A stretch of 64,000 nt of DNA. It comes from Pseudochelatococcus sp. (GTDB lineage: Bacteria > Pseudomonadota > Alphaproteobacteria > Rhizobiales > Beijerinckiaceae). Shown here in pieces: positions 21,558 through 59,348 of this stretch. Every line of letters starts with the position of its first letter. Within the stretch, counting starts at the first letter, position 1. A program made the position numbers and the translations under genes. Below the pieces are notes generated by a model, which was not told the DNA's origin, did no database searches, and saw only the letters and a program-made list of their open reading frames with translations. The DNA lies in the NCBI RefSeq assembly GCF_050946405.1, contig NZ_JBMNUS010000013.1, positions 71,443-135,442 of the forward strand. The letters are read 5' to 3'.

Positions 21558-21663
21558 ATTTCACGCATTTTCACGGATATTCAAGAGGTGCCTCATCAAT
21601 GGGCAGAGACTGCCTAATGGGTAGTCACATCGGCAAAAATTGCATGATAACGACAAAAATTGC
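21558..21663 (+). promoter_or_regulatory. Low-GC upstream region of the megasynthase gene with two pairs of direct repeats (candidate operator/promoter)
   Basis: ATTTCACG occurs at 21558 and 21568 (10-bp phasing). CAAAAATTGC occurs at 21634 and 21654 (20-bp phasing). This is the only AT-rich patch between the MFS gene and the FAAL domain. Confidence 0.3.
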
Positions 21664-21711
21664 GTCGCGGGGAGAGGCGGGCGCTTGCGTCGTCATCTCC
21701 CATATCGTTAC

Positions 21712-24700
21712 ATGTCGGCGACAATCAGGCAGACTTTCCCCTCCCGATCGGATCAGCCGTTCATGTGCTCGTTCAAAGCGCCGTCGACGCTCAATGACGC
21801 CCTTGTCTCAAATGCGGGCGTGTCGGAGATCGGAGTTGCGGGCATTGGCGATCCGCCGCGCGGCGTGACCTTTTTCGGGGCCGACCGCCAGCTCACGCAT
21901 GTTTCCTACGCGCAGTTGCTCGACCGCTCCCGCCGCTGGCTGTGGCATCTGACGCAGGGCGGCGTCCGCCCCGGCGACGAGGTGCTGATCGTCACCGACG
22001 ACCTGCCGCTGTTCACGACGGTTTTCTGGGCCTGCGTGCTCGGCGGCATCGTCGCCGTGCCGGTCTCGACACCCACGAACGACGAGGGGGCGCTCAAGAT
22101 CGCGCGTATCCGGGGCGTTCTGCGGCGTCCGTGGATCGTCTCGGACGCGCGGGTGCATGCTCGCCTCGCCGCCGTCGCGGACGGGATCGCGCCGGAACGC
22201 ACGGCGTGCGCCGGCGAGCGCTCGATCGCGGTTCCCGGCGTCGTGCTCGATTGTCCGGCGGCGCCGGTGGCATCCGTGGCGGCGTCGGATGTGGCCTTCA
22301 TCCAGTTTTCCTCCGGCTCGACGGGCGCGCCGAAGGGCGTGATCGTCACCCACGCCAACCTGATCGCCAATTGCACGGCCATTCTCAAGGGCATCCTTGC
22401 GAACGCGCCCGGTGAAAACGGAGAAGCCGCGCGCCTGTTGAGCTGGATGCCGCTGACGCATGACTTCGGCCTCATCTGGTTCCACATCCTGCCGACCGTC
22501 TTCGGGCTGGATCACGGCCTCGTCCCGACGAAGCTCTTCGTGCGCAACCCGCTGGTGTGGATGCAGGCGGCCTCCGACATGAAGGCGAGCGTGCTCGGCG
22601 GGCCGAATTTCTCTTACCGGCATTTCCTCAAGCATTTCGATGCCGGCAAGCCGCGCGACTGGGATCTGTCGCCGGTCCGCGTCATCGCCAACGGCGCGGA
22701 GCCCATCTCCTGCGAACTGGCGGAGGAGTTCACCGCGGCGCTCGCGCCTTGCGGACTCGATCGCGGGGCGATGACCGCCGCCTACGGGCTGGCGGAAGGC
22801 ACGCTGGTGGTGAGCATGGCGCAGCCCGGCGCGGGGCTCGGCCGGATTTCCGTCGACCGCAACCGCGTCAATCCCGGCGAGCGCGTCGCGCCGCTGGATG
22901 AAGGCGATGACGCCGCGGTGAGTTTCGCGGATGTCGGGACGCCGCTGGATTGCGTGTCGCTGCGCGTTGTCGACGAGGCGGGGCTGCCCTGCGCCGACGA
23001 TGTGGTCGGCCGCTTGCAGATAACCGGCGCGAGCGTGACCGCCGGTTACTACAACGACGACGAGGCGACGCGCGCCGCCTTCACGGCGGACGGCTGGCTG
23101 GATACGGGCGATCTGGGCTTCATGCGCGCCGGGCGTCTCGTCGTCACGGGCCGCCGCAAGGACGTGATCATCGTCAACGGGGTGAACTACTATCCGCAGG
23201 ACATCGAGCGCGTGGCCGGCGAGGCGGAAGGGCTCGACCTCAACATGGTGGTCGCCGGCGCGATCCCGCGCGGGGTTCTCGGCGAGGATCGGGAAGGCGT
23301 CGTGCTGTTCGTGCTGTTCCGGCGCGAGGTGGAGCGGTTCCTCCCGCTCGCCCGCGAGGTGCGCGACCGCGTGCTGCGCGAGATCGGCATTCCCGTCGAT
23401 CGCGTCATTCCGGTGGCCCGCATCGCCAAGACGACGAGCGGCAAGGTGCAGCGCTTTCAGATGGTGGGGCAGTTCGTCGCCGGTGCGTTCGATGAAGCGT
23501 TGCGCGCGCTCGATGCGGCGGATGCGGCCGAGGGCGCCGCGCTGCGCCGGGCGTGGGAGCGGGGCGACGAGGCCGCGCTGGTGGCGGAACTGGCGGCGTG
23601 GGGCGCGCGCATCGTGCCGGGCGGCGCGCTCGATCCGGGCCGGCCGCTCATGGAAAGCGGCTTCACGTCGCTGCGTCTCGTCGAACTGATGCGGCGCATC
23701 GGCCGCGCGCTCTCGCTGGACCTGCCGGTCACGCTCGCCTTCGAACAGCCGACGCTGGCGGCGCTCGCCGGCGCGCTCGTGCGCCTGCGCAGCGCCGATG
23801 CCGCGCCTGCGGAAGCGCCGCGCGCCGCGCCGGCGGCGGAGCGGGCGCGGATCGGCATCACCGGGCTGGCCTGCCGCCTGCCCGGCGGCGTTGAAAGCCC
23901 GGCCGGCTTCTGGCGGCTGCTTGAAGGCGGCGTCGATGCGACGGCGCCGGTCGCGCCCGGCCGCTGGCCGGCTTACGACGCCAGCCTGACCGTGACCGAT
24001 CGCGGCGGCTATCTGGCGGATATCGAAACCTTTCCGGCCCGGTTCTTCAATCTGACGCAGGTGGAGGCCGATGCCGTCGACCCGCAGCAACGGCTGCTGC
24101 TCATGACGGCCTGGGAGGCGCTGGAGCACGCGGGGATCGATCCGCTGTCGCTGAAGGGATCGCGCACCGGCGTGTTCGTGGGCATCAGCCCCGGCGATTA
24201 CGTGCAGGCGCAGGCGCGCGCCGGCCGGCTCGACGCCATCGGCCCGCATGCGTTTCTCGGCAGCGCAACGAGCGTCGCGGCCGGGCGCATCGCCTATGTG
24301 CTGGGGCTGGAGGGGCCGGCGCTGGCCGTCGACACGGCCTGTTCGTCGGCGCTCGCGGCGCTCCATCTCGCGGTGCGGGCGCTGCGGGCCGGCGAGTGCG
24401 ACCGCGCGCTGGTGGCGGGCGTCAATCTCATCCTCGGCCCCGAGATGCATGTGGGCCTCAGCCGCATGAACGCGCTGTCGCCCGCGGGGCGCTGCCGGGC
24501 TTTCGACGCGGCGGCGGACGGCTACGCGCGCGGCGAGGGCTGCGTCACGCTCGTGCTGGAGCGTCTCGATGCCGGAGATGCGCCACGTCCGCTCGCCCTT
24601 GTGCGCGGCACGGGCCTCAACCACGACGGCGCGTCGAACGGGCTCACCGCGCCCAACGGCGCGGCCCAGCGGGCGGTGATCGCCGCCGCGCTCGCGGATG

Positions 24701-27700
24701 CGGGCCTTGCGCCGGCCGATGTCGACTATGTGGAGGCGCACGGCACCGGCACGCCGCTCGGCGACCCGATCGAGGCGATGGCGCTGGCGGAAGCCTACGG
24801 CGCGGGGCGCGACGGCGAGCTGCGCGTCGGCTCCGTCAAGACCAACATCGGCCATCTGGAGGCCGCCGCCGGTCTTGCCGGCCTCGCCAAGGCGGTGCTC
24901 GCGCTCCGGCATGGCAGCCTGCCGGCCTCGCTGCATTTCGAGACGCCCAATCCGCTGATTCCGTGGCCGCAACTGCCCCTGCGCGTCGTCGACCGCGCCG
25001 AGCCGTGGCCGGCCGTGGCCGGGCGGGTGCGCCGGGCCGGCGTCAGCGCCTTCGGCATGAGCGGCACCAACGCGCATGTCATCATCGAGGAAGCACCGCC
25101 GGCGCCCGTGCCCGCGCATGACGACGCGCGGGCGACGGTGCTGCCGGTTTCCGCGCGCACGCCGGAGGAATGCGCCGCGCTGGCGGAGCGTTACGCGGCC
25201 GCGCTGGAGCGCGCCGACAGCGGCCGCATGCACGATCTGGCCCGCACGGCAGCGTGCGGCCGGGCGGCGATGGCGCATCGGCTGGCGGTGACGGGACGCG
25301 ATCCGGCGGAACTCGCCGCGAAGTTGCGGGCGAAGGCCGCCGCCGGGGCTGGCAGGCCCGATGCCGGCGCGCCCGTCGTCTTCCTGCTGCCGGGGCAGGG
25401 GGCGCATGCGCCGGAGGCGGTGCGCGCGCTCCATGCGCGCGAGCGCGTGTTCCGTGAGACGCTGGATGCGGCCGATGCGGCGCTTGAGGGCTTTCTGGAC
25501 CGGCGCCTGACCGATCTCCTGCTGTCGCCGGAGGGCGCGCCGCTTCTGGGGCGCACGGCCTACAACCAGCCGGCGACGGTGGCGGTGTCGCTGGCGGTGG
25601 CGGCGATGCTGCGGGCGTTCGGCGTGCGGCCCGATGCGGTCATCGGGCATTCGGCCGGCGAGATCGCGGCGGCGGCGCTCGCGGGCATGCTGGATCTGCC
25701 CACGGCGGTGCGGTTCGCGGCGGCGCGCGGCGCGGCCATGCAGGCGCTCGACGGCGGCGCGATGATCGCGGTGCGCGCGCCGGCGCAGACGATCAACGAC
25801 GTGATTGCGCAGACCCTGGCGCGGGTCGAGGGCGTGGGCGTCGCCGCCTGGAACGCGCCGGCGCGCGTCACGCTGTCGGGGCCGCGCGAGGCGGTGGCGC
25901 GGGCGGCCGCCGTCCTGCGCGAGGCAGGCGCGCGCGTGGCAGAGCTGCGCGTGGCGGAGCTGGACGTGTCGCACGCCTTCCACTCGCCGATGATGGACGG
26001 CGCGCTCGCCCCCATCCGCGAACTTGCCGCCGGCCTCACGGTGAGCGCGGCGACGGGGCGCATGATTTCCACGCTGACGGGCGGGCCGGTCGATGCCGGG
26101 GCGCTGCGCGATCCCGCCTATTGGGCGCGGCAGGCGCGCGAGCCGGTGGCCTTTGCCGCCGCCGTGTCGGCGGTGGGGGGCGATGCGCCCGACCGCGTCG
26201 ATCCGGTTCTGATCGATCTTGGCGCGCGGCCGGTGCTGGCGCCGCTCGCGGCGGAGGTGCTGCCGCAGGCGCGCTGCCTCGCCGTCTGCGACGCGCGCCG
26301 GCCCGACGAGCGGCTCATCGAGACGCTGGGCGAACTGTTCGAAGCCGGCCGGCCCGTGGCATGGCCCGCCGTCTTCGCGGAGCGTCCCGGCCGGCTCGCG
26401 GAAGCGCCGACCTATCCCTTCATCGGCAAGACGCGCGTGCTGCCGACGGCCGGTGCGGATTCCCGCGCCGGCGAAGCGCAGGCGGCCGGCCGGGCGGAAG
26501 CGCTGCCCGTGCCCGCGGCGACAGCCCCGGTGGCGGGGCGCGAGGCGGTTGCGCACGTCATCCGCAGCGTCCTGCGCGGCGTCGCCGGGCTCCAGCCGGA
26601 GGAGGTGGCGGGCGATGCGACATGGTTCAGCCTCGGCCTCGATTCGCTGCTGATCGTCCAGCTCCAGCAGGCGCTGGCGCGCGAATACGCCATCGACCTG
26701 CCGCTCGCCGCCGTCATGGAGAACGGCGATACGCTCGACCGGCTCGTGACCCTCGTGGTGGAGCGCCTGCCCCGCGTGGCGCAAGCGCCGGTGGAAGCGC
26801 CCGTTATGGAGACGCCCGCTGCGGCGGCGGCTGGCGGCGAAGGCGTCGAGGGGCTTCTCGCCCGGCAGATCGACGCCATGAGCGCGCTGTTCAGCCAGCA
26901 ACTCGCGTTGCTTCAGGGCGGAGTCCGGCCGGCGGTTTCGACGCCCGCCGCTATCCCGGACGTCGCAGTCGCCGGGCCGGCCCCGGCCGCGCCGAAACGC
27001 GAGATCAAGGGCCTGTTCAAGGCGCTGCCGGCGCGCAGGGAGCAGGCGAATCCGGCGCAGGAGGCGCATGTGCGCCGCCTTGCCGCCGCCTTCAACGCCC
27101 GCACGCGCTCCTCGAAGGAGCATACGGCTGCCTATCGTGGCGTCTACGCCAACCCGCGCGCCGTGATCGGCTTCCGCCCCGAGTGGAAGGAGCTGAACTA
27201 CCCCCTGCATGTGGAGCGGGCGGAAGGGCCGTATGTGTGGGATATCGACGGCCATCGTTATGTCGACATCACCATGGGTTTCGGCGTGACGCTGTTTGGC
27301 CACAACCCGCCCTTCGTGCGCGAGGCGCTGGCGGCGGAGCTTGCCGCCGGCTTTCCCGTCGGCCCGCAGAGCGCGCGGGCCGGGCGGGTCGCCGCCATGA
27401 TCAGCGCCATGACCGGCGTGGAGCGGGTGGCGCTGTTCACCACCGGCAGCGAGGCCGTCATGGTCGCGCTGCGGCTGGCGCGCGCGAAAACCGGCCGGCG
27501 CAAGATCGTGACCTTCGTCAATTCCTATCACGGCACGTTCGACGGCGTGCTGGCGGTGGGCTGGACCGAGGGCGCGCGCGTGACGACCATGCCCGTGAGC
27601 GAAGGTACGCCGCAAGGCATGGTCGATGACGTGATCGTGCTGCGCTACGGCGATCCGGCCGCGCTCGACGTCATCCGCCAGCACCTCGCCGAACTGGCGG

Positions 27701-30700
27701 CCGTGGTGGTGGAGCCGGTGCAGAGCCGCGACCCGGCGGTGCAGCCGCGCGCCTTCCTGCACGAGTTGCGGGCGCTGACGGCGCAGGCGGGCGTCGCGCT
27801 CGTTTTCGACGAGACGATCACCGGCTTTCGCGTGCATCCCGGCGGGGCGCAACGCCATTTCGGCATCGAGGCCGATATCGTCACCTACGGCAAGGTCGTC
27901 GGCGGCGGCATGCCGATCGGCGTCGTCTCGGGAAGGCGGCATTATCTCGACGGCGTCGACGGCGGCGACTGGCAGTATGGCGACGATTCCGTTCCTTCCG
28001 CCCGCACCGCCTTCGTGGCCGGCACCTTCAACAACCATCCCCTGACGGCGGCGGCGGCGGAGGCGGTGCTGAAGCACCTCGCCGCCGAGGGGCCGCAGTT
28101 GCAGGAGCGGCTGAACGCCCGCACCGCCGCGATGTGCGCCGAGCTAGACGCCCTGTTCGCGGCCGAGGACGTGCCCGTCCGCATGGCGCATTTCAGCTCG
28201 CTGTTCCGTTTCGAGTTCGCCGGCGACACCGAGATCCTCAACTATCACCTGCTCAACAACGGCGTTTTCGTCTGGGAGGGGCGCAACTGCTTCCTCTCCA
28301 CCGCCCACAGCGACGACGACATCCGCTTCATCGTCGAGGCGGTGCGCAAGGGCATCGCGGAGATGCGGGCCGGCGGATGGCTGCCGCCGTCGCCGGGCCG
28401 CGCCGCGCCCGAGGCGCGCCAAGAGCATGGTGCGCGCGAGGAGGCAGGACCGGCGCCGCTCGGCCGGGGGCAGGGCGAGATGCTGGCGCTGCTCGAAGCG
28501 CGGCCGGAGGCGACGCTCGCCTATAACGAGATGGTGGCCTTCGCGCTCGACGGCCCGCTCGACCGGGAGGCGCTGCGCCGCGCCTTCGCCGGGCTCGTGC
28601 GGCGCCACGAGGCGCTGCGTTGCGCGGGCATCGACGAGACCGGCTGGCGCGCGGCGGCTCTTCCGCCCGCCGACCTGCCGGCGGAAGAGCCGGCCGAAGA
28701 AGGAGCGGTGATGGCGCGCCTGGCGCGCGAACTCGAAACGCCGTTCGATCTGCAACGCGGGCCGCTCATGCGCGCGCTGCTGCTGCGCCTTGCGCCGCAG
28801 CGGCATGTGGTGGCTTTCACCGTGCATCACATCGTCGCCGACGGCTGGTCGCTCGGCCTGATGGCGGGCGAACTCGCGGCGCTTTACGCCGCCGAACGGG
28901 CCGGCGTGGCGGCGGCGCTGCCGCCGGCCGAATCGTTCCGCGCCTTCGTCGCCTGGACGCAGGGCTTGGACGGCGGCGCGTCTCCGATGGCGGAAGACAG
29001 CGCGCCCGTCGTCCTGCCGGCCGCCGATTTCCCGCATCGCGCGTCCTTCCGCGGCGGGCGCGTCCACCGCCGCCTGTCGGCGGGCGGGCGGGAAGGCGAA
29101 GGCGTGTTCGATGCCGCGAGGCGTTTCGCGCGCGCGCATGACACAAGCCCGTTCACGGTGCTGCTCGCGGCCTATGCGCTGCTGCTCGGCCGCCTGTCGG
29201 ACCAGCGCCGGCTGACCATCGGCATTCCCGTCGCCGGCCATACGGAGGCCGGCTTGCCGGTGATGGTGGGGCAGGCGTCGGCGGTGCTGCCGCTGACGCT
29301 GGAACTCGATCCGCAAGCGGATTTCGCAGCCCTCGTTGCCCATGTGAAGGCGGCGCTGGCCGATGCCCGGCACGGCGTCGGCGGGCTCTTCACCGCGCAG
29401 GGCGGGCGGGGCACCGATGTCAACGTGCTGTTCAACCTCGACCGCGGTTTCCGGCTCGATTTCGAGGGATTGGGGCTGACGTGGATATCGCCTCCGGTCA
29501 GCCGGCCGAAAAAGGACCTGTTCCTCAACGTGCTGGAGCTGAACGGCGAAGCGCTGCTCGATCTCGATCATGACGGTGCGCTGGGCGATTCCGCCACGGC
29601 GGAGCGCTGGCTCGATTCCTTCCTGTCGCTGCTCGCCGAGGGGCTGCGCGCGCCCGCGACGCCGATCGCGCGCCTGCCGCTCTCCGCCGCTGACCGGGCG
29701 GCACAGGCGGATGATGTGCGCACGCGCGACGGCTTCGGCGCGCCGGCCGCCATCGGCACGGTCGCGCCGGTGGAGGCGCGCGACGATGCGGGGCTTTGGG
29801 CCGACACGGGGCGGCTCGGCCGGCTGCGGGCGGATGGCGGCGTCGAGGTGCTGGGCGAGGCGCGGCGTTTCCTGCGCACGCGCGGCGGCTGGCTCGATCT
29901 CGACCTTCCGGCGCGGGTGCTGCGGGAACACCCGGCGCTGGCCGATGCCGCCGTGATCGCGGAATCCGGCGGGCTGACCGCCTTCGTGACGCCGCGCGCG
30001 GGCGGGCAGGTCGACGGGCAGGCGCTCGCCGCCTATGCGGCGCTGCGGCTGCCGCCCGAGGCGCGGCCGGCCGCCTTCGTCGTGACGGATATCGCGCGCG
30101 ATGCCGGGGGGCGCGCCCTCCTGCGCGCCGATCACGGCGAGCGTCTCGCCACGCGCGCCCTCACGCCCGCCCGCACCGATGCGGAGAAGGCGGTCGCGGC
30201 GATCTGGGCCGAGGTTCTCGGGCTGGAGGAAGTCGGCGTCCTCGACAGCTTCTTCGACCTCGGCGGTCACAGCCTCAAGGCGCTCGCCATCCTCGCGCGC
30301 GTCGAGGCGCGGCTCGGGCGCACCGTGCGGCTGCGCGCCTTCTTCGAGGAGCCGACCGTGGCGGGGCTCGCGTCACGTCTGGGCGCGGGCGAGGCGCATG
30401 CCGTCATTCCGACCGCGGCACCGGCGGCGCATTATCCGGCGTCGAACGCGCAGGCGCGGCTGTGGATGCTCGACCGGATCGATCCCGGCCTTGCCGCCTA
30501 CAACATCGGCTTTTCGCTGCGCAGCGCCGCGCCTCTCGACGAAACCGCGCTGCGGATCGCGCTGGCGGGCCTCGCCGGGCGGCACGAGAGCCTGCGCACG
30601 GCGCTCATCGACCATGACGGCCTGCCGCGCCAGACGATCCTGCCCGCGTTGCAGCCCGAGCTGCGCATCGAGGATGCGGTGGGCGCGGACGCGGCGGCGC

Positions 30701-33700
30701 TCGTCGCGCGGGAGCGGGCCATCGCCGCCGAGCCCTTCGCGCTGGAGCGCGCGCCGCTCTGGCGGGCGGTGCTGCTGCGCGGGGGGCAAGGGGATATCGA
30801 GCCGGCGGGCGACCGTCTGGTGTTCGTGCTGCATCATGCCATTGCCGATGTGTGGTCGGTCGGCGTTTTCGTGCGGGATTTTCTGGCGTTGTACGCAGAG
30901 GCCGGCGGCGCACGGCTGCCGGCGCTGGCGCTGCAATACCGGGATTATGCGGTCTGGCAGGTGGGGCGGCCGGAGCCGCATCTTGACTGGTGGGTCGCGG
31001 CGCTGGCGGATGCGCCCCGGCTGGAGCTGCGGCCCGACCGGCCGCGCCCGCCGCTCAAGACCTTCAACGGCGATCATGTCGTTCTCGATGTGCCGGGGCC
31101 GGTCGCGGCGGCCCTCAAGGCGCTTGCCGCCGTCAACGGCGCGAGCGCGTTCACGGCGGTGGTCGCGGCGCTCTGCAACCTGCTGTGGGAAGAGACGGAG
31201 GCGCGCGACATCGTCATCGGCACGGTGACGGCGGGGCGCGACCATCCGGCGCTCGCGGACCAGATCGGTTTCTTCGTCAACACGCTGGCGCTGCGCGCGC
31301 GGGTGGCGCCGGAGGCGGGCTTCCTGCCGCTGCTCGCGGGCGTGCGCGATGCGCTGCTGGCGGCGGCCGAACATGGCGATACGCCGCTCGACCGGGTGGT
31401 CGAGGCGTTGAACCGCCCGCGCGATCCGGCGCGCAATCCGCTGTTCGAGGTCGTCGTGGTCATGGACGACCGCGAGGAGATCGACCGGCTGCTCGCCGGC
31501 ACCGGCTTCGCGCTCGCGGAAATCGACACGGCGACGGCGCAGTTCGACCTCACGCTTTATGTCACCGACGGCGCGGACGGCATCCGCATCAAGGCGACCT
31601 ACAATACCGACCTGTTCGACCGCGCCCGCATCGAGGGACTGATGGCGCGGCTGGCGGGGCTGATGGCGGGGGCGGCCGCCGATCCGGCGCGCGCGCTCGC
31701 CGCGCGGGCGCAGGGGGGCAGGGCGGCGCATGGTTCCGCGCCTGGCCAACGGCAAGGCTACGCGCCGTCGCGCCATCAGGAGCGGCTGTGGTTCGTGGAT
31801 CACTTCGAGCGCGGCGTGCTCTATCCGTCCGGGCCGACCTATTACAACATGCCGTTCGTGGTGCGCGTCGACGGCGCGGTCGATGCCGCGCGGCTCGCGG
31901 CTGCCGCTGCGGCGCTTGCGGCGCGGCATGAGGCGCTGCGCGCGGCGCTCGTCACGCAGGGCGACCGTCCGGCCGTCGAGGTCGCGGCGGCTGCGGCGCT
32001 GCCGGTTGCGGAGATTGCGGCGCCGGCGGGGGCGGGGCTTGCCGCAGTCGAGGAGGCGAGCCGCGCGGCCTTCGACCTCGATACGCCGCCGCTCGCCCGT
32101 CTGACGCTCTGCCGCGAGGCGGGGAGCGGCGCCTGCTGGCTCGCCCTGACGGTTCATCACGCCATGGGCGACCGGGCGGCGCTGCGCACGCTGGCGGAGG
32201 AACTCGCCCGCCTTTATGCCGACCCGGCCGCCGCCCTGCCGGAAATCCGCCCCTTCGGCGCGGCCCATGCGCTGCCGGAGCGGGCGGTGGAGGCCGGCCA
32301 TGAGGCGGATGCCGCCTATTGGCGCGAGGCGCTGGCGGGCGTTTCCGCGCTCGTGCTGCCGACGGACCGGCCCCGCCCCGCGATCCACACCTTCACGGCG
32401 GGCCGCGTCGCGGGGCGGCTCGACGCGGCGCTGCGCGGGCGGATCGACGCGCTGGCGGCGGCGCTCGGCGTGAGCCGGGCGGATGTGCTGCGCGCCGGTT
32501 ATCAGGCGTTGCTGCATCGTCTTTCCGGCCAGCGGGATGTCGTCATCGGCGAGACCGTGCAGCCGCCGCAACCGGCGCGGACGGTCGGGCCGCTCGCCAA
32601 TCTCCTGCCCTTGCGGCTCGACGTGGAGGCCGGCGAGGGCTTTGCCGCGCTGGTGCGGCGCGCGGCGGCGCGGCGGCAGGCGGATGCGGCGCATGGCGCG
32701 ATCCCCTTCGATCTGCTGGTGCTGGCGGTGAAGCCGCGCAACGACATGAGCCGCACGGCGCTGTTCGATGTGCTGTTCCACCATGAGAATGCGACCGCCG
32801 CCCTGCCGGCCGGGTGGGCGGCGGTCGACACCGGGCTCGGCTGGGGCAAGTACGATTTCGTGCTGTCCGTGGTGCCGGATGGCGACGGGCTGGCGGTGAG
32901 CCTCGTCTACAACCGCGACCTTTTCGACGCCGCCAGCGCGCAGGCCGTCCACGCGCGCTACGGGCAACTGCTGGCGGCGGCGCTGGCGCAGCCGGAGCGG
33001 CCGCTGTCTGCGCTCGACATCATGCTGCCGGGAGAGCGCGCGGCGCTGCTGGCCGAAGCCGGCGAGGTGGCCGATTACCCGCGCGGCCTCACGCTCACGG
33101 CGCGTTTCGAGGAGATGGCGGCGCGCCACGGGGCGCGCATCGCCGTCACCGACACCGACGGGGAACTGACCTATGCGGCGCTCGACGCGCGCGCCAACCG
33201 GCTGGCGCATCGCCTGCGCGCGCTCGGCGCGGGACCGGAGGCGCTGGTCGGGCTGTTCGTGGGGCGCACCTGGCGCATTCCCGCTGGCATTCTCGGCATT
33301 CTCAAGGCGGGCGCGGGCTATGTGCCGATCGATCCCGCCTATCCCGACGAGCGCATCCGCTTCATGGTGGCGGATTCGGGCATGCGGCTCATCGTCACCG
33401 ACGCTGAAAACGCGGCGGCGGCGCACCGCCTCGGCATTGCTACGGTGGTGATCGATGATCTGGCGGAGGACCTGCCCGTCGCGGCGACACCCGAAAATGC
33501 CGCGCCCGAAAATGCTGCGCCCGAGAACGTCGCTTACGTCATCTACACGTCCGGTTCCACCGGCATGCCCAAGGGCTGCGTCATCGAGCACCGCAACGTC
33601 ATCCAGCTCTTCTTCCACGAGGGGCGGCCGTTCGCCTTCGGGCCGGATGACGTGTGGAGCCTGTTCCACTCCGCCTGTTTCGACTTCTCGACGTGGGAGA

Positions 33701-36354
33701 TCTACGGCGCGCTGCTCTTCGGCGGCCGGCTCGTCGTCGTGCCGCAGGCGCTGACGCGTGAGCCCGCCGCCTTTCTGGAACTCGTCGCCCGCGAGGGGGT
33801 GACGGTGCTGAGCCAGACGCCGACCGCCTTTTACGGGCTGATCGAGGCGGCCCGGCAGCGCCCCGGCCTGCATCTTGCGCTGCGCGAGATCGTCTTCGGC
33901 GGGGAAGCGCTGGCGCCGGCCCGGCTTGCCCCGTGGCGGGCGCTCCACCCGGCCGCGCGCCTCGTCAACATGTACGGCATCACCGAAACGACGGTGCATG
34001 TGACGTTCAGGGAGATCGGCGACGCCGAGATCGCGGAGGGCCGCAGCGTCATCGGCCGGCCGCTGCCGTCCTGCGGCGTGTTGCTCGTCGGCCCCGATCT
34101 CGCGCCCTGCCCGCGGGGCGTGGCCGGCGAGATCGTGGTCGCGGGCCACGGCGTCGCCCGCCGCTACCTGAACCGGCCGGAACTCACGGCGGAGCGCTTC
34201 ATCGCGCACCCGGACCTGCCCGGCGGGCGCGTCTACCGCTCCGGCGATCTCGGCCGGATCGGGCTTGACGGCGAGCTGGTCTATCTCGGCCGCATGGACG
34301 ATCAGGTCAAGATACGCGGCTTTCGCATCGAGCCTGGCGAGATCGAGCGCCGGCTGGTCGCGCATCCCGCGATCCGCGATGCGGCCGTTCTCGCCGAGGG
34401 CGGCGAGGGCGGCGAGGGCGCGGCGGGCGAGAGCCTCTGCGCCTGTGTCGTCACCGATGCGCCGCCCGGCCGCGAGGAGCTGTTTCACTATCTGGCGGAC
34501 AAGCTGCCCGACTACATGATTCCGTCGCGCTTCCTGCGCGTGGCGCGCATCCCGCTCACGGCCAACGGCAAGGCGGACCGCCGGCGGCTCGCGGCGGAGG
34601 GCGGCGAGGCGATCGGCGCGGGGGGCGGCGCGGAGGAAGGCCGGGCGCCGCGAACGCCACTGCAAAAGGCGGTGGCGCGCATCTGGTGCGAGGTGCTGGG
34701 CGTGCCGCAGGTGGGGCTCGACGACAATTTCTTCGCGCTCGGCGGCCATAGCCTCAAGGCCAATCAGGTCGTGGTGCGCATCCGCCAGCGCCTCGGCGGC
34801 AGTCTCGACCTGCGCGATTTCTTCAGCGCGCAGACGCTCGCCGTGCTGGTCGAGCTGATCGAGCGGCGCGGGCTCGGCGCGGCGGGCACTATTGCCCCGG
34901 CGCCGTCCGCGCCCGACTATCCGCTCTCCTTCGCGCAGCGCCGGCTGTGGCTGGTGCAGAACATGAACCCCGATAGGGTGGCCTACAACATGGCCGGCGC
35001 CTTCGTCGTGGAGGGGGCCGTCGACCGGGAGCGGCTGGCGGCGGCGTTCCGGGCGCTGGCGGTGCGCCACGAGATCCTGCGCACGCGCTTCGTCTCGCGC
35101 CACGGCGAGCCCCGGCAGGTGGTGGATGCCGGCATCGACGGGCATATGGCGGTGTTCGAGGCCGGCCATGACGCGGGAAGCGGCGGGATGGCGGCCGTGG
35201 AGCGGCTGCTCGCGGCGGAGCTTCGCCATGTCTTCGATCTCGCGCGCGGGCCGCTGGCGCGGGTGCATCTGGCGGAGCTGCCCGTCAAAGGGCACGGCGG
35301 CTGCGCCATCATCATCAACCTGCATCATATCGTCTCCGACGGCTGGTCGGTGACGGTCATGCTGCGCGAGCTGGAGGCGCTCTACCGCGCGGCGCTGGCT
35401 GCGCCGCAGGCGACGCCGGCGGAGATCGCGGCGCGGGCCGGGCTGCCGGCGCTGCCGGTCCAGTACCGGGACTATGCCTTGTGGCAGCACGGCGAGGCGG
35501 CGGGCGAAGGGTTGCGGGCGGCCCGCTCCTACTGGCTCGCCCGCTTCGAGGACGAGGCGCCGGCGCTGGAACTGCCGGCCGACCGGCCGCGTCCGCATAC
35601 GCCCGGCGGGGCCGGCGCCATCGTGCATGCCGTGCTCGACGAGGAACTGACGCAGGCGCTGAGGGACCTCGCGCGCCGCCACGACATGAGCCTGTTCGGC
35701 GTGCTCGCCGCGCTCGTGCGGGTGCAGCTCGCGCTCCTGTCGGGGCAGGACGACATCACCATCGGCACGCCGGTCGCCGGCCGCAACCTGCTGGAGCTGG
35801 AGGGGCAGATCGGCTTCTACCTCAACCTGCTGGCGCTGCGCGGCCGCATCGGGCCGCAGGATGCCTTCGGCGATGTCCTGAAGGCGGAGCGCACCCTGGT
35901 GCTCGACGCCTTCGCCCATGAAGCCTGTCCGTTCGACCTCCTGGTCGGGGAGCTGGGCGTCACGCCGGAGCGCGGCCGCCATCCGCTTTTCGACGTGCTG
36001 ATCATTCTCCAGAACAACGAGCCCGTGCGCCTCGACCTTGCCGGGAGCCGGGGCGCGCCGCTGCGCGATACCAGCATCAGCGCCAAATACGATCTCAACT
36101 ATATGTTCGAGGACCGGCCGGCGCTCGAACTGCTGCTGGAATACGCGGCGGATCTTTTCGATGCGGACACGGCCCGCCGCATCGCCGGGGATTTCGTCGC
36201 CCTCGCGCGGGCGGTCGCCGCCGATCCCTCCATCGGCGTCGACAGCCTGCGGGATCGCATGCAGCGGGCCGTGCCGCCGCCGGATGCGCCAGCGGCGGAT
36301 GTGCTGGCGCATGACGCGGCGCATGGTGCGGCTTTTGCCGATGACGGGTGGTGA
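21712..36354 (+). CDS. Hybrid FAAL-PKS-aminotransferase-NRPS megasynthase: FAAL-ACP-KS-AT-ACP-AMT-C-(A remnant)-PCP-C-C-A-PCP-C
   Basis: A single ORF (21640..36354; the 21640 codon is TTG) carries all the motifs listed in the domain features below. The most likely ATG starts are 21712 (MSATIRQ) or 21763 ([14 protein letters not shown]). Confidence 0.95.
   Translation: [4880 protein letters not shown]
21850..23490 (+). other. Domain: fatty acyl-AMP ligase / acyl ligase (FAAL-like adenylation domain)
   Basis: [22 protein letters not shown] (about 22290-22350), [37 protein letters not shown], and a terminal SGKVQRF. Confidence 0.85.
23560..23790 (+). other. Domain: ACP1
   Basis: [19 protein letters not shown]; the candidate Ppant Ser codon is at 23668..23670. 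Confidence 0.7.
23845..25110 (+). other. Domain: ketosynthase (KS)
   Basis: VDTACSS with Cys at 24340..24342, [27 protein letters not shown], and it ends at [10 protein letters not shown]. Confidence 0.9.
25370..26290 (+). other. Domain: acyltransferase (cis-AT, malonyl-type signature)
   Basis: [16 protein letters not shown] with Ser at 25651..25653, and SHAFHSP (the HAFH motif is associated with malonyl-CoA selection). Confidence 0.85.
26530..26770 (+). other. Domain: ACP2
   Basis: [18 protein letters not shown]; Ser codon at 26644..26646. Confidence 0.85.
27080..28390 (+). other. Domain: PLP-dependent class III aminotransferase (AMT, glutamate-1-semialdehyde aminomutase-like)
   Basis: [42 protein letters not shown], and [13 protein letters not shown] with the candidate PLP Lys at 27892..27894. 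Confidence 0.85.
28450..29690 (+). other. Domain: condensation C1
   Basis: HHIVADGWS at 28825. Confidence 0.85.
29700..30150 (+). other. Vestigial adenylation-domain remnant (C-terminal subdomain only, motifs decayed)
   Basis: There are only about 190 codons between the end of C1 and the PCP1 serine. WADTGRL stands in place of A7, [22 protein letters not shown] in place of A8, and DAGGRALLR in place of A10. No A1-A6 motifs are present. Confidence 0.7.
30170..30390 (+). other. Domain: PCP1
   Basis: [11 protein letters not shown]; Ser codon at 30271..30273. Confidence 0.9.
30420..31700 (+). other. Domain: condensation C2
   Basis: [16 protein letters not shown] at the start; HHAIADVWS at 30832. 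Confidence 0.85.
31760..33010 (+). other. Domain: condensation-like C3 (tandem to C2, atypical active-site context HHAMGDRAA)
   Basis: It starts [30 protein letters not shown], with HHAMGD at 32155. No carrier domain lies between C2 and C3. Confidence 0.75.
33070..34600 (+). other. Domain: adenylation A2 (by-eye code DFWSVGMVHK, Thr-like)
   Basis: [14 protein letters not shown] (about 33540), [51 protein letters not shown]. Confidence 0.85.
33490..33534 (+). repeat. In-frame 15-bp tandem repeat x3 ([15 protein letters not shown]) inside A2
   Basis: cccgaaaatgccgcg / cccgaaaatgctgcg / cccgagaacgtcgct, read directly. Confidence 0.9.
34650..34870 (+). other. Domain: PCP2
   Basis: [11 protein letters not shown]; Ser codon at 34750..34752. 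Confidence 0.9.
34915..36354 (+). other. Domain: C-terminal condensation C4
   Basis: [16 protein letters not shown] at the start; HHIVSDGWS at 35323. The protein ends about 340 codons later with no carrier or TE domain. Confidence 0.85.
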
Positions 36355-36357
36355 GCC

Positions 36358-38247
36358 ATGTGCGGCATCGTGGGATTTCTCGACCGGGATGGCGCGCCGC
36401 GCCCGCACGATCTGCTGCGCCGCATGGCGGAGGCCGTGCGCCACCGGGGGCCGGATGACGAGGGCTTCTTCACCGGCGACGATATCGGTCTCGGGTTCCG
36501 CCGTCTGTCGATCGTCGATCTGGAAGGCGGGCGGCAGCCGATGTTCGCCGGCGACGGGCGTGTGGCGGCCATCTGCAACGGCGAGATCTACAACCACGCC
36601 GAGCTGCGGGCCGATCTCACGGCGCGCGGCCACCGCTTCCGCACGCGCTGCGACACGGAGGTGATTCCGGCGCTGTTCCTCGAATACGGGCTCGACTTTC
36701 CGCGCCGCATCAATGGCCAGTTCGCCTTTGCCGTCTACGATCGGGAGACGCGCCGGCTGGTGCTGGGGCGCGACCATGTGGGCATCGCGCCGCTGTTTCA
36801 TGCCGAGGTCGGCGGGCTGCTGTTGTTCGGCTCGGAAATCCGGGCGCTGCTGTGCCATCCGGGCCTTGCCCGCGATGTCGACCTGACGGCGCTCGACCAG
36901 ATCCTGACCTTTCCGGGGCTGGTGAGCCCGCGCACGATCCTGGCGAACGTGCGCGCGCTGCCGCCGGGGCATCTGCTGGTGGCCGATCCCGGCCGGCCGC
37001 CGCGCCTCGATCGCTTCTGGGATCTCGATTTTCCGCGCCATGATGAGTTTCCGCGCCATGACGAGATCGGCCCGCCCGGCCGGGCGGACGATTACGTCGA
37101 CGAGCTGGACGCCGCGTTGCGGCAGGCGGTGCGCTACCGGTTGCAGGCCGATGTGCCGGTCGCCGGCTATCTGAGCGGCGGCCTCGACAGTTCGCTCGTC
37201 GCCGCCATCGTCGCCGATCTGGAGCCGGGGGCCACGCGGCATACGTTCTCCATCACCTTTCCCGACAGGGCGATCGACGAGCGCGAGCCGCAGCGCCTCG
37301 TCGCGGCGAGGCTCGGCACCGCCCATCACGAGCGGGAGATCGATCCCGCGCGACTCGCCGCCGGGCTCGACCGCATCGTGGGCTGTGCCGAAGCGCCGCT
37401 GCGCGAATCCTATAACGTATGCTCGCTGCATCTGTCGGGCATGGTGCGCGAGGCCGGGCTCAAGGTGGTGCTCACCGGCGAGGGCGCGGACGAGCTTTTC
37501 GGCGGCTATGTGGGCTACAGGCTCGATGCGGAGCGCGCGCCTGACGCGGACGACCCTTACGATCTCGACGCGCTGATCGAGGGCGAGTGGCGCGAGCGCC
37601 TGTGGGGAGACAGCCGTTTCTTCTACGAGAAGGATTATGGCGCGAGCCGCGACATCCGCCGCGAACTCTACGCGCCGGCGCTGGCCGAGCGCTTCGAGGC
37701 GTTCGACTGCCTCGCCCATCCGCTTGTCGACCGCGCGCAGATCGAGGGCCGGCATCCGTTTCATATCCGCTCGTATCTCGATTTCAAGCTGCGCCTGGCC
37801 GATCATCTGCTGGCGGATCACGGCGACAGGGTGAGCTTCGCCAATTCCGTCGAGGCGCGCTATCCGTTTCTGGACATCGGCGTCATCGACGTGGCGCGCC
37901 GCATCCCGCCCGCCCTCATGGTGCATCAGGGCGAGGAAAAGCATATCCTCAAGCGTCTCGCCCGGCGCTACCTGCCGGCGCAGATCGTGGAGCGCAAGAA
38001 GTTCAGCTTCGTCGCCCAGAGCAGCGCCACGCTGCTGCGCGAGGGCGTGCCGCGCGTGCGCGAGGTGCTCGACGAGGCACGCGTCGCGGCGGACGGCTAC
38101 TTCAGCCCGGAGGCGGTCGCGCATCTCAAGCAGCGGCACGCCGCGCCGGGCGCGGAACTCAACCAGACCTTCGAAGACGACTTCCTGATGGTCGCACTGA
38201 CCTTCGGGATCCTGCGCGAACAATTCGATCTGCCGAAACTCTCATGA
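36358..38247 (+). CDS. Asparagine synthetase B-type glutamine-dependent amidotransferase
   Basis: N-terminal nucleophile MCGIVG, the PP-loop SGGLDSS, and a length of 629 aa. It starts 4 nt after the megasynthase stop codon, and its stop overlaps the next NRPS start (ATGA). Confidence 0.9.
   Translation: MCGIVGFLDRDGAPRPHDLLRRMAEAVRHRGPDDEGFFTGDDIGLGFRRLSIVDLEGGRQPMFAGDGRVAAICNGEIYNHAELRADLTARGHRFRTRCDTEVIPALFLEYGLDFPRRINGQFAFAVYDRETRRLVLGRDHVGIAPLFHAEVGGLLLFGSEIRALLCHPGLARDVDLTALDQILTFPGLVSPRTILANVRALPPGHLLVADPGRPPRLDRFWDLDFPRHDEFPRHDEIGPPGRADDYVDELDAALRQAVRYRLQADVPVAGYLSGGLDSSLVAAIVADLEPGATRHTFSITFPDRAIDEREPQRLVAARLGTAHHEREIDPARLAAGLDRIVGCAEAPLRESYNVCSLHLSGMVREAGLKVVLTGEGADELFGGYVGYRLDAERAPDADDPYDLDALIEGEWRERLWGDSRFFYEKDYGASRDIRRELYAPALAERFEAFDCLAHPLVDRAQIEGRHPFHIRSYLDFKLRLADHLLADHGDRVSFANSVEARYPFLDIGVIDVARRIPPALMVHQGEEKHILKRLARRYLPAQIVERKKFSFVAQSSATLLREGVPRVREVLDEARVAADGYFSPEAVAHLKQRHAAPGAELNQTFEDDFLMVALTFGILREQFDLPKLS
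37030..37065 (+). repeat. In-frame 18-bp tandem duplication (FPRHDE FPRHDE) in the AsnB-like gene
   Basis: tttccgcgccatgatgag / tttccgcgccatgacgag, with one synonymous difference. Confidence 0.9.
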
Positions 38248-41200
38248 CAGGACAAGGCCCCGTGCACTCCACCATGCAGCCTCCCGTGCAGCGTCCCATG
38301 CAGCGTAGCTCCTACGTCGACCGGTTCGAGGAGAATGCACGGGCGCGCCCCGCCGCCGCCGCGCTGGCGACGGCGGCGGGTGAAGTGTCCTACGGCGCGC
38401 TCGACGCGCGGGCGCAGCGCCTCGCCCGGCGGCTCGCGCGGCTGGGGGCGGGGAAGGGCGTCATCGTCGGCCTGTTTCTGGACGCCGACGAAACCTATGT
38501 CGCGGCGCTGCTCGGCGCCGGCAAGACGGGCGGCGCCTTCCTGCCGCTGCCGCCGGACCTGCCGCCGCTGCGCGTCGCCGCCTGCCTCGCCAAAGCGGAA
38601 TGCGGGATCGTCGTGACGCTGGGCCGCCACCGCGCCGCGCTGGATGCGGCGCTGGCTGAAGCCGGCCGATCGGTCGCGGTCATCGAGGCGGATGCGCCGG
38701 ACGATGCCGGCGACGCCGCGCCGGTGGCGCGCGCCATCGGCCCTCACGATCCCTGCTACGTCATGTTCACGTCGGGCTCCACCGGCGCGCCGAAGGCCAT
38801 TCTGGGGCCGCATCGCAGCCTCTCCCACTTCCTGCGCTGGGAGGTCGGCGAGTTCGGGCTGGATGAGACGGTGCGCGGCTCGTGGCTCGCGCCCGTCACC
38901 TTCGATGTCAGCCTGCGCGACATCCTCGTGCCGCTCATGGCCGGGGGCACGCTCTGCATTCCCGATGCCGAGACGCGGATGGTGCCGCGCAAGCTGGTCG
39001 ACTGGCTGGCGCGCGAAAAGGTGACGCTGGTGCATTGCGTGCCGACGGTGCTGCGCCTGATCACGCGCGAGCTGGCCGACCGCGGCGGCGATGCCGGCCT
39101 TGCGGTGCGTCATCTGCTGGTGGCGGGCGAGCCGCTGCTCGGCGCGGATGTCGCGGCCTGGCGGGCGGCGGCAGGCGGGCGCGCCGAGGTCGTGAACCTC
39201 TATGGCCCGTCGGAAACCACGCTGGCGAAGGTGTTCCACCGCATCGGCGAATTGCCCGCCGATCCGCGGCGGGTGCTGCCCATCGGCCGGCCGCTGCCCG
39301 ACACATCGGTGCTCGTTCTTTCCAACGGCCGGCTTTGCGGCCCGCAGCAGATCGGCGAGATCCACATCCGCACCGCCTATCCCTCGCTCGGCTACCTGAA
39401 CGACGCGGCGCTGACGGCGGCGAGCTTCATCCGCAATCCGCTCGGCAACGACGATGCCGACATCGTCTACAAGACCGGCGATCTGGGGCGCTACCTGCCG
39501 GACGGCACCGTCGAATGCCTCGGCCGGCAGGACAATCAGGTCAAGGTCAATGGCGTGCGCATCGAGCTTGCCGAGATCGAGGTCGCGCTGCGCGCCGTCG
39601 CGGGCATCGCCAAAGCGGCGGCGGCGGTGCATGCGGGCGGCGGGGCCGATCCCGTGCTCGTGGGTTATTATGTGCCGGATGCCGGCGCGGCGCCGTCGGC
39701 GGAGGCGATCAAGGCGCAGCTCGGGCGCATCCTGCCGGCGGCCATGCTGCCGCACGTGCTGGTGCGTCTCGACGACCTGCCGCGCACCATCAGCGGCAAG
39801 CTCAATCGCAAGGCGTTGCCGCGCCCGGAGGAGCTGTTCTACGCCGAGCATGCCTATGTGGCGCCGCAGGGCGAGACGGAAGACAAGCTCGCGGCCATCT
39901 GGCGCGAGATCTTCGGCCTGACGCGCGTCGGCGTCGAGACCGCCTTTCACGATTTCGGCGGCGACAGCCTGCGGGCGATCCGCGCCGTGCAGAAGATCTT
40001 CCAGACATTCTCCGTCGAGATCAGCCTGAAGGATTTTCTCGCCGCCGCGACGATCCGGGAACTGGCGCGCCTCGTCGCGGCCGCAGTCCCCGCGCCGGTG
40101 AGCGCCATTGCGCGCGCGGCCGATGCGGCAAGCTATCCCGCCACCCCGGCCCAGAACCGGCTGTGGCGTCTCGACCGGCTCGGCATCGCCCCCACCGCCT
40201 ACAATCTGACGGAAGCGTGCGAGCTGCTGGGGCCGGTGAACGAGGCGGCGCTGGAGCGCGCCTTTCGCGACCTGATCGGCCGCCACGAATCGCTGCGCAC
40301 CACATTCGAGGAGGATGCGGACGGCAACGCGCGCCAGATCGTGCACCATGACACGCCCTGGCGGCTCGAACGCGTCGACCTGCGCCGCCATGCGGAGCCG
40401 GACCGCGCCGCCGCGCTGCTGGCGCGGGACAATGCCGGGCATCGCTTCGACCTGCATCGCGGCCCGCTGCTGCGCGTCGTGCTCGCCCGCCTGCCGGATG
40501 CGGAGGGCGCGGCGCGGCATGTGCTGCTGTTCAACATTCATCACATCGTCGCCGACGTGTGGTCGCTCGGCGTGCTGGTGCGCGAGGTGGCGGCGCTCTA
40601 TGCGGCGGCACTCGCCGGCCGCGACGCCGGCCTTGCGCCGCCGGCGCTGCAATTGCGGGATGTGGCCGTGTGGCAGGCCGGGCGGGCGGCCGCCGGCGCG
40701 CTGGACGGCGACCGCGCCTATTGGCTGGAGCGCTTCTCCGCGCTGCCCGCGCCGCTCGACCTGCCGGCCGACCGGCCGCGCCCGCCGGTGCAGACCTTCA
40801 ACGGCACCACGCGGCGCTTCCGCCTGCCGGCGGACCTGACCGGGCAGCTCGACGGCCTCGCGCGCCGGCACGGCACGACGCGCTTCGCCGTGGTCACGGC
40901 GCTGACGAAGGCGCTGCTGCACCGTTATACCGGACAGACGGATATCGTCGTCGGCAGCCCCGTCGCCGGCCGCACGGATGCGGCGCTGGCGGACCAGATC
41001 GGCTATTACGTCAACACGCTCGCGCTGCGCGACACTGCGGAGGCGGGAGCGCGCTTCGCCGACCTGCTCGCGCGCGTGGCGGCGACGGTGCGCGAGGGGC
41101 TCGCGCATCAGGATTACCCGTTCGACGCGCTGGTGCAGGAACTGCCGCTCGAACGCGACATGAGCCGCTCGCCGCTGTTCGACGTCATGGTCGTCGACCA

Positions 41201-59166: not shown

Positions 59167-59348
59167 ACCCGTTATCGCTTCGACGGAAAAACCACCGGAA
59201 AACCCTTATGCCGGCGGATGGCGGGACGCATCCTATCATGCGCGGCCGGGCGGGCGCGACGGCGCAGGAATGCTCTTGACCGACGCAAGCGTTGACGCGA
59301 CGTTATCGCCGATGGTCGCCGCAATCTATGGCGCGGTGCGGTGATAGT

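Follow-up and report, generated by a model that had tools for sequence, protein, structure and literature searches.

Nonribosomal peptide synthetases (NRPSs) in which a truncated adenylation (A) domain is combined with loading by another A domain have already been documented in fungi and in bacteria. The fungal synthetases SidD and Nps6 contain a truncated 'dA' domain lacking ~290 N-terminal residues, and the SidD A1 domain loads both T1 and T2 (PMC10192304). A truncated A domain is also found in FbsE of the fimsbactin pathway in Acinetobacter, where the FbsF A domain is predicted to supply Ser in trans (PMC11291136). In the thalassospiramide and WS9326A pathways, modules without an A domain are served by other A domains or by A-peptidyl carrier protein (A-PCP) proteins and shuttles (PMC10510592), and a missing or inactive A domain is trans-complemented in SyrE (module 9), albicidin, cystobactamid and ramoplanin biosynthesis (PMC8949500). 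Here we describe a truncated A domain in the first NRPS module of a hybrid polyketide synthase (PKS)/NRPS gene from Pseudochelatococcus sp., located in a 64-kb stretch of contig NZ_JBMNUS010000013.1 that was analysed as a whole (the window). This module reads C1-A*-PCP1, with a condensation (C) domain and a carrier flanking the remnant of an A domain (A*, the stub). The case is unusual rather than new; added interest comes from the apparent selective maintenance of the remnant and from similar remnants in distant phyla.

The window protein resembles SidD and Nps6 in combining an N-terminal A-domain deletion with retention of the C-terminal part ahead of an intact carrier (PMC10192304). In SidD, an adjacent module of the same polypeptide supplies the A domain that charges the carrier, and we propose the same mechanism here. 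SidD and Nps6 are fungal synthetases of hydroxamate siderophores that have lost ~290 aa, whereas the window encodes a bacterial (Hyphomicrobiales) iturin-like beta-amino fatty acid hybrid with ~370 aa lost and a shorter remnant. Sequence hallmarks of the 'dA' type are found at this locus, namely an N-terminal A deletion within a C-x-PCP module, intact carrier and C domains, and a deficit of A domains. FbsE is likewise a bacterial NRPS with a truncated A domain and a PCP predicted to be served by another A domain (PMC11291136), but it belongs to a siderophore pathway with cyclisation domains and its loader sits on a separate polypeptide, unlike the arrangement proposed for the window. The A-less lines share with the window an excess of carriers over A domains; their A domains are missing or full-length and inactive, and a conserved C-terminal remnant is not described in these two sources (PMC10510592, PMC8949500). 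The order of fatty acyl-AMP ligase (FAAL), KS, aminotransferase and C domain in the window is that of the first subunit of iturin/mycosubtilin-type synthetases and of aminotransferase-C-A-PCP modules in cyanobacterial and other synthetases of beta-amino fatty acid lipopeptides (puwainaphycin, PMC4219810; loci L002-L017), and the complete first C-A-PCP module that follows the aminotransferase in this type is lacking. The A domain after this C domain is complete in the relatives examined, whereas it is truncated in the window and in a Methylobacterium orthologue (L001).

Results

The first NRPS module of the hybrid gene retains ~150 residues of an A domain, comprising a short A-core segment, probably a beta-hairpin, and the A7-A10 subdomain fold, in a reading frame that is uninterrupted across C1, stub and PCP1. 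The features concerned are listed below.

21763..36354 (+), hybrid PKS/NRPS gene (Pfam domains; 4863 aa from ATG 21763)
28477..29691 (+), C1, the condensation domain after the aminotransferase; HHIVADGWS intact
29692..29796 (+), C-A linker with a small surviving piece of A-core (RTRDGFGAPAAIGTVAPVE), probably the hairpin before motif A6
29797..30138 (+), what is left of the C-terminal A subdomain (A7-A10)
30139..30189 (+), stub-PCP1 linker, poorly conserved and, by eye, without the LPxP of intact A-PCP linkers
30190..30399 (+), PCP1 (PF00550, E=8e-16); GGHSL intact

The mechanical open reading frame (ORF), 21640-36354, opens with TTG at 21640 and yields a 4904-aa translation; ATG 21763 is the likely start, and the database protein is identical from MCSFKAPS on. 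This counterpart (P0004, WP_433460181.1; 4863 aa, from a Pseudochelatococcus sp. metagenome-assembled genome (MAG)) is named 'iturin family lipopeptide synthetase A' by one source. Pfam places the FAAL, the KS, a class-III aminotransferase and the following C domain in one protein with the order FAAL-ACP-KS-AT-ACP-aminotransferase-C1-A*-PCP1-C2-C3-A2-PCP2-C4. The C1 motif HHIVADGWS lies at aa 2396 (nt 28825). An earlier reading of this DNA made from its letters (the sequence-only reading) had placed the PCP1 serine at 30271; the phosphopantetheine serine of GGHSL is present, one codon off, as aa 2877 (nt 30268-30270).

In MAFFT alignments, the end of C1 and the PCP1 serine are separated by 194 aa in the window and 195 aa in the Methylobacterium orthologue, compared with 556-574 aa up to the PCP serine in four complete aminotransferase-C-A-PCP relatives. 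By this difference, ~365-380 residues are missing. The spacing, together with a PF13193 match and no PF00501 match, bears out the C-A*-PCP anatomy described by the sequence-only reading. Motifs A1-A5, the specificity pocket and most of A6 are gone; the earlier statement that A1-A6 and the pocket are missing agrees with a PF00501 search of aa 2588-2937, which recovers no core. The eroded motifs were found where that reading had put them: A7 is WADTGRL (nt 29797-29817), A8 is GEARRFLRTRGGWLDLDLPARV (nt 29854-29919) and A10 is DAGGRALLR (nt 30100-30126), from which the Lys is absent. TGRL occupies A7 in both orthologues, with Arg replacing the catalytic Asp, and at A10 the window has DAGGR and L001 has RADGS, the Lys being missing from both. 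Because the core and the catalytic residues were tested for and are absent, the stub is not a functional A domain, and it is predicted to bind neither ATP nor an amino acid and to be incapable of adenylation. Since the stub cannot adenylate, PCP1 needs another loader or is unused, as had been supposed, and the residue at the module-1 position is indeed unpredictable from sequence.

The sequence-only reading had equated the remnant with the small C-terminal subdomain. A7-A10 conform to this, but ~35 residues upstream of A7 (aa 2685-2719) also survive; they form the C-A linker and, probably, the beta-hairpin that precedes A6. Placement of this pre-A7 segment is ambiguous, one MAFFT alignment pairing it with motif A3 and another with A6; the pre-A6 assignment is favoured because the hairpin is clearer in the remnants of two further proteins described below, P0065 (VLDRTGKPVGVGVVGEL) and P0095. 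The AlphaFold2 model predicts strands in this segment.

Profile searches gave the same picture of a missing core. PF00501 was not found by Pfam search in aa 2588-2937 even at E<=10 and matched only twice in the 4904-aa translation, and by tblastn the adenylate-forming cores of this gene are the FAAL and A2, with none at the stub. The profile search for a full A1-A6 core in this interval, set beforehand as a test by the sequence-only reading, thus recovered none, and the finding stands. PF13193 (AMP-binding_C) matches aa 2760-2817 (E=2e-4; 22.6 bits), narrowly missing the cutoff of 24.5 bits. Against PDB sequences (phmmer), the stub and PCP1 give collinear alignments that span A7 and the whole carrier in PvdL, LgrA, SrfA-C and TycB, at E=5e-28 to 2e-22. 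The stub alone gave 17,351 matches at E<=1e-3 among 1.84 billion representative proteins (phmmer), and nearly all of the best 150 start at query residue ~31-46, just upstream of or at A7 (query residue 42-48).

The structural model that had been proposed as a check is in agreement. AlphaFold2 assigns a predicted local distance difference test score (pLDDT) of 81-93 to the A-subdomain core and 79-93 to the PCP, and <50 to the A10 loop and linker. Foldseek matches this model to the A-PCP parts of DhbF, ObiF1, SrfA-C, PvdL, EntF and LgrA (E ~1e-16), as well as to ANL ligases over ~160 columns. Alignment and model alike indicate that the stub carries the ANL C-terminal subdomain fold, with a similarity far beyond chance.

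A scan of the genome collection recovered a single true orthologue, from the isolate Methylobacterium sp. EM32 (L001), with the same architecture, the same stub boundaries and 61% identity across C1-stub-PCP1. The two species share HHIVADGWS in C1 and GGHSL in PCP1 without change. The window comes from a MAG and NRPS repeats are prone to misassembly, so that the short interval might be an assembly or binning artefact from which A-core sequence had collapsed out. Such an artefact is scarcely credible: an isolate genome shows this architecture in frame, its interval being 195 residues long, which argues against it, and the stub motifs are degenerate throughout instead of forming a junction of two intact half-domains.

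Whole genes of the window and L001 were aligned, and the ratio of non-synonymous to synonymous substitution rates (dN/dS) was calculated per domain by the Nei-Gojobori method, the synonymous divergence of the pair being ~0.7-1.0. The A7-A10 part of the stub (aa 2720-2833) is 58% identical with dN/dS 0.41, and the whole remnant (aa 2685-2833) has dN/dS 0.42 (bootstrap 0.25-0.64). Values for other parts of the protein are 0.38 for C1 (64% identity), 0.33 for PCP1 (67%), 0.41 for the FAAL (59%) and 0.49 for C3 (61%), with 0.34 for the whole gene. The aminotransferase-C1 linker has a dN/dS of 0.90, and the stub-PCP1 linker, which is 29% identical and modelled with pLDDT <50, one of 0.92. The intact A2 subdomain (70% identity, dN/dS 0.30) is slightly more conserved than the stub. 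These estimates indicate that the stub is a stably maintained element under purifying selection and not a transient state. The stub is shared, with the A10 Lys missing and TGRL present in both species, from which it follows that function was lost before the two genera split.

The sequence-only reading had called the stub 'decayed', which is apt as regards catalysis only, and a 'frozen intermediate', which is not supported for an element shared with Methylobacterium sp. EM32 whose dN/dS of 0.42 contrasts with 0.90-0.92 in the flanking linkers. A neutrally decaying leftover, frozen on its way to complete A loss and with no role of its own, would account for the erosion of every catalytic motif, for the variable A10 region and following linker with their low pLDDT, and for the slightly weaker conservation of the stub than of the A2 subdomain, in identity as in dN/dS; A-less C-PCP modules free of any remnant do exist (P0028, below). 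We nevertheless regard neutral decay as improbable, given a bootstrap range that ends at 0.64, the absence of frameshifts and a single gapped position between window and L001 at this synonymous divergence, a pre-A7 segment that is about three quarters identical between the genera, and the recurrence of similar boundaries in independent lineages.

Further stub orthologues were sought in three ways. The only matches in a word-indexed protein search were three fragments of ordinary A domains (34-38% identity), a full HMMER scan of representatives returned the window's own protein and then ordinary A domains, and two metagenome scans with stub patterns gave no match. The selection analysis consequently rests on one pair.

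The nearest C1 relatives come from aminotransferase-C-A-PCP modules, in which the C domain stands after an aminotransferase, and include proteins of Plantactinospora, several cyanobacteria, Saprospiraceae and Pseudooceanicola. A complete A domain follows the C domain in L002, L003, L004, L006, L008, L009, L011, L013 and L031, and a stub only in L001; L017 has a complete A-core after aminotransferase-C, with no PCP detected. As the other close C1 relatives examined have a complete A domain, the truncated state is derived. Specificity codes of the first module differ widely among the relatives (Gly-like, Thr, Ser and others) and are uninformative. In Pseudooceanicola sp. (L009 14437-14800) and P. 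nanhaiensis DSM 18065 (L031 14440-14810), the second module is C-(~118 aa)-PCP within an aminotransferase-C-A-PCP-C-x-PCP architecture. This remnant is shorter, beginning within A8, its A10 Lys is replaced (FPRSSTGAINR), and it is conserved between the two species.

We surveyed 719 PCPs in the best 150 representative NRPS proteins with domain hidden Markov models built from the window; the sample was chosen by similarity to the stub, and its frequencies are not a population estimate. An A-core precedes 708 of these PCPs and another PCP precedes three, while three are the first domain detected. The remaining five stand directly after a C domain: one in the window protein, one each in P0065 and P0095, and two in P0028. 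The remnants of P0065 (aa 1024-1172; Actinocrispum sp. NPDC049592) and P0095 (aa 5734-5897; a Thermoanaerobaculia MAG) are laid out as in the window, with the C-A linker, the pre-A6 hairpin (VLDRTGKPVGVGVVGEL and LGPDLRPVPLEVPGQL, respectively), a degenerate A8 and loss of the A10 Lys; both have TGE instead of TGD at A7. P0028, from a Myxococcales MAG, contains two C-PCP modules without a remnant. By domain score against the window stub, the P0095 remnant ranks 544th of 763. The two are therefore not specifically related, which points to independent events with convergent boundaries, and remnants with similar boundaries look like independent products. A 'tandem C' upstream of the P0095 remnant was considered as a parallel to C2-C3 of the window and proved to be an ordinary epimerase-C pair.

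Recurrence of this kind would be explained if the remnant were a functional adaptor and more than a spacer, its beta-hairpin and A subdomain allowing A*-PCP1 to dock, in the conformation that forms the thioester, on the core of a neighbouring complete A domain (A2). Two 'subdomain-PCP arms' would in that case share a single A-core, which would account for the retention of remnants with closely similar boundaries in at least three lineages from three phyla (the Hyphomicrobiales pair, the actinomycete and the acidobacterial MAG). We consider an adaptor of this type a speculative and rather improbable addition to the loading of PCP1 by another A domain, for which the following features are relevant.

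30433..33039 (+), tandem C2 (30433-31719, HHAIADVWS) and C3 (31792-33039, HHAMGDRAA)
33106..34605 (+), A2, the complete adenylation domain nearest to the stub; code DFWSVGMVHK (Thr-like)
36358..38247 (+), AsnB-like glutamine-dependent amidotransferase (Pfam GATase_7 and Asn_synthase)

By tblastn, the window contains five adenylate-forming cores (FAAL, A2, A3, A4 and A5) against five PCPs, leaving four amino-acid A domains for five PCPs in 64 kb. No stand-alone A domain or A-core was detected in the window by tblastn or in Pfam scans of the larger flanking ORFs, and no stand-alone A or A-PCP gene occurs in the 22 kb around the Methylobacterium orthologue. This shortfall and the lack of a stand-alone A domain in the window make loading of PCP1 by another A domain the best inference. 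An active, non-cognately loaded module is favoured because the C1 and PCP1 active sites are identical in the two species and under purifying selection, and because C1 is the only C domain of the aminotransferase-donor type in the line; module 1 is thus probably active.

By alignment, the specificity codes are DFWSVGMVHK for A2 (Thr-like; DFWNVGMVHK in the L001 orthologue), DVRHLALLAK for A3 (identical in L001; matched to no assigned specificity), DAATIAAVCK for A4 (Phe-like, with a methyltransferase insertion) and DLTKLGHIGK for A5 (Asp-like). A2 also contains an in-frame tandem repeat, PENAA-PENAA-PEN (33490-33528), just upstream of motif A3 (YTSGSTG). A2 shares a polypeptide with PCP1, and among its paralogues PCP1 is most similar to PCP2 (49% identity), with 43% for PCP5 and 32-33% for PCP3 and PCP4. 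These observations weakly suggest A2 as the leading candidate loader. Similarity of the remnant to A2, A3 or A5 was also tried as a guide to the loader and set aside, the local alignment scores of 94-99 being indistinguishable.

A dedicated external loader, either a stand-alone A domain or an A-PCP didomain with a thioesterase-like shuttle, might instead be encoded outside the window, in which case the A domains of this line would take no part. Precedents exist in WS9326A (PMC10510592) and in syringomycin, albicidin and ramoplanin biosynthesis (PMC8949500). The cluster ends with an alpha/beta-hydrolase that has a weak thioesterase match (59292-60407), and the analysis covered 64 kb of a 135-kb contig. 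Genes for dedicated trans-loaders usually lie in the cluster of the assembly line that they serve, however, and neither the window nor the 22 kb around the Methylobacterium orthologue contains a stand-alone A or A-PCP gene. An external loader is accordingly unlikely, although it keeps an appreciable share of our expectation.

The AsnB-like enzyme had been offered by the sequence-only reading as a further, speculative loader that would itself adenylate an amino acid and load PCP1. Its gene directly follows the hybrid gene and is syntenic in L001, where the identity is 80%, a value exceeding those of all NRPS domains except the KS and the aminotransferase. Asparagine-synthetase-type enzymes do form acyl-adenylates. 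A related ANH-like domain occurs in the trans-complementing module of albicidin/cystobactamid (PMC8949500). The protein nevertheless has the full two-domain organisation of a glutamine-dependent asparagine synthase, implying amide formation with ammonia and not thioester formation: it scores 434.7 bits against TIGR01536 (cutoff 267.1) and keeps the Cys of its N-terminal MCGIVG. We know of no case in which a carrier protein is loaded by a member of the asparagine-synthetase family. Amidotransferase chemistry is indicated because the TIGR01536 equivalog cutoff is passed and the glutaminase N-terminal Cys is kept. Given the Asp-like A5, the enzyme could plausibly convert Asp to Asn by amidating a residue or a precursor, and such an ordinary function (Asp to Asn, or Asn supply) makes loading of PCP1 by this enzyme very improbable.

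C2 and C3 follow PCP1 directly with no carrier between them. C2 motifs are canonical and those of C3 divergent, and HHxxxD is kept in C2 and C3 of both orthologues. With six true C domains, the line has one more than its five condensations require. Neither C2 nor C3 qualifies as an epimerase, the epimerase motifs being absent from both, or as a known dehydrating C domain, their PDB matches being ordinary C domains with none distinctive at E<=1e-5.

This surplus bears on a further explanation, that module 1 is skipped or dead and PCP1 is never aminoacylated, with the beta-amino acyl chain passing straight to C2 or C3 and then to PCP2, so that the product would contain no residue from module 1. 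Module 1 has no A domain, the extra C domain of the C2-C3 pair could mean that vestigial parts are present, and skipping has been reported in the thalassospiramide pathway (PMC10510592). Against this, C1 is the only C domain of the after-aminotransferase type and PCP1 its sole adjacent acceptor; the catalytic motifs of C1, PCP1, C2 and C3 are kept in both species at dN/dS 0.33-0.49; and three conserved C domains for one condensation are harder to explain than one extra C domain. Both species keep the C1 and PCP1 motifs intact under purifying selection, so that loading in trans is the more likely course and skipping, in our judgement, unlikely.

Discussion

We favour, with moderate confidence, a working module 1 whose A domain has lost ~370 residues, whose remnant is kept, and whose PCP1 is loaded by the A domain of another module. 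This loss would predate the divergence of the Pseudochelatococcus and Methylobacterium clusters. As a folded spacer or tether, the remnant may hold PCP1 in place between C1 and C2. PCP1 would be aminoacylated by the A domain of another module, most likely A2 in the same polypeptide, and C1 would then join the beta-amino fatty acyl chain, carried on the ACP and processed by the aminotransferase, to the PCP1-bound residue. Direct observation covers the anatomy, the loss of catalytic motifs, the conservation with its signature of selection, and the window's shortfall of one A domain; the activity of the module, its loading in trans and the part played by A2 we infer.

Several points weigh against this scheme. 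With a surplus C domain in C2-C3, the logic of the line is not fully understood, and a non-canonical use of PCP1 is possible. PCP5, at 43% identity, is nearly as similar to PCP1 as PCP2 is, and the A subdomains that best match the stub have many specificities, none of the Thr type; an ancestral specificity sought for the remnant among the 30 best-matching subdomains gave no signal. The survey covers 64 kb of the genome, and a dedicated stand-alone A domain may lie elsewhere. The selection estimate comes from a single orthologue pair, by Nei-Gojobori, in a GC-rich genome, and a pooled-linker control has dN/dS 0.60 (0.35-0.97), overlapping the range of the stub. Both the loading of PCP1 and the activity of the module are deduced from the sequence of this cluster.

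The peptide of this iturin-like Hyphomicrobiales pathway is not predictable by collinearity: the line lacks an A domain at one position and has an extra C domain. The conservation of the remnant under purifying selection and the recurrence of remnants with similar boundaries in unrelated bacteria suggest that an A-subdomain-PCP unit with a small piece of the A-core is structurally self-sufficient and survives loss of the core. This bears on the evolution of NRPS modules by internal deletion and on the engineering of A-less modules that share an A domain.

Other features of the cluster

Downstream of the AsnB-like gene lie an NRPS with the order A3-PCP3-C5-A4(methyltransferase)-PCP4-E and an ABC transporter. 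Beyond the transporter are a beta-lactamase-fold/autotransporter fusion, an NRPS reading C7-A5-PCP5-TE, and the alpha/beta-hydrolase. An exact-protein look-up of the genes at the window edges found neither protein on record. The first megasynthase ends with C4 and the next NRPS opens with A3-PCP3, giving a split module (35200-39500); the AsnB-like gene is inserted between the end of C4 and the start of A3-PCP3, an arrangement also found in L001.

The C-terminal 'condensation' match of the second NRPS (44260-45680) is an epimerisation (E) domain, with the motifs PVQRWF, HHLVMD, ESHGRE, TVGWF and FNYLGQ, and the residue of the N-methylating A4 is therefore probably turned to the D form. The alpha/beta-hydrolase at the cluster end, with its weak thioesterase-family match, may be a type II thioesterase; an aminoacyl shuttle as in WS9326A is the less likely alternative. 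The fusion protein (47402-50836; 1144 aa) combines a beta-lactamase/penicillin-binding-protein-like fold (aa 58-393) with an autotransporter beta-barrel (aa 865-1124), and could be an outer-membrane-anchored hydrolase acting on the product or a resistance factor.

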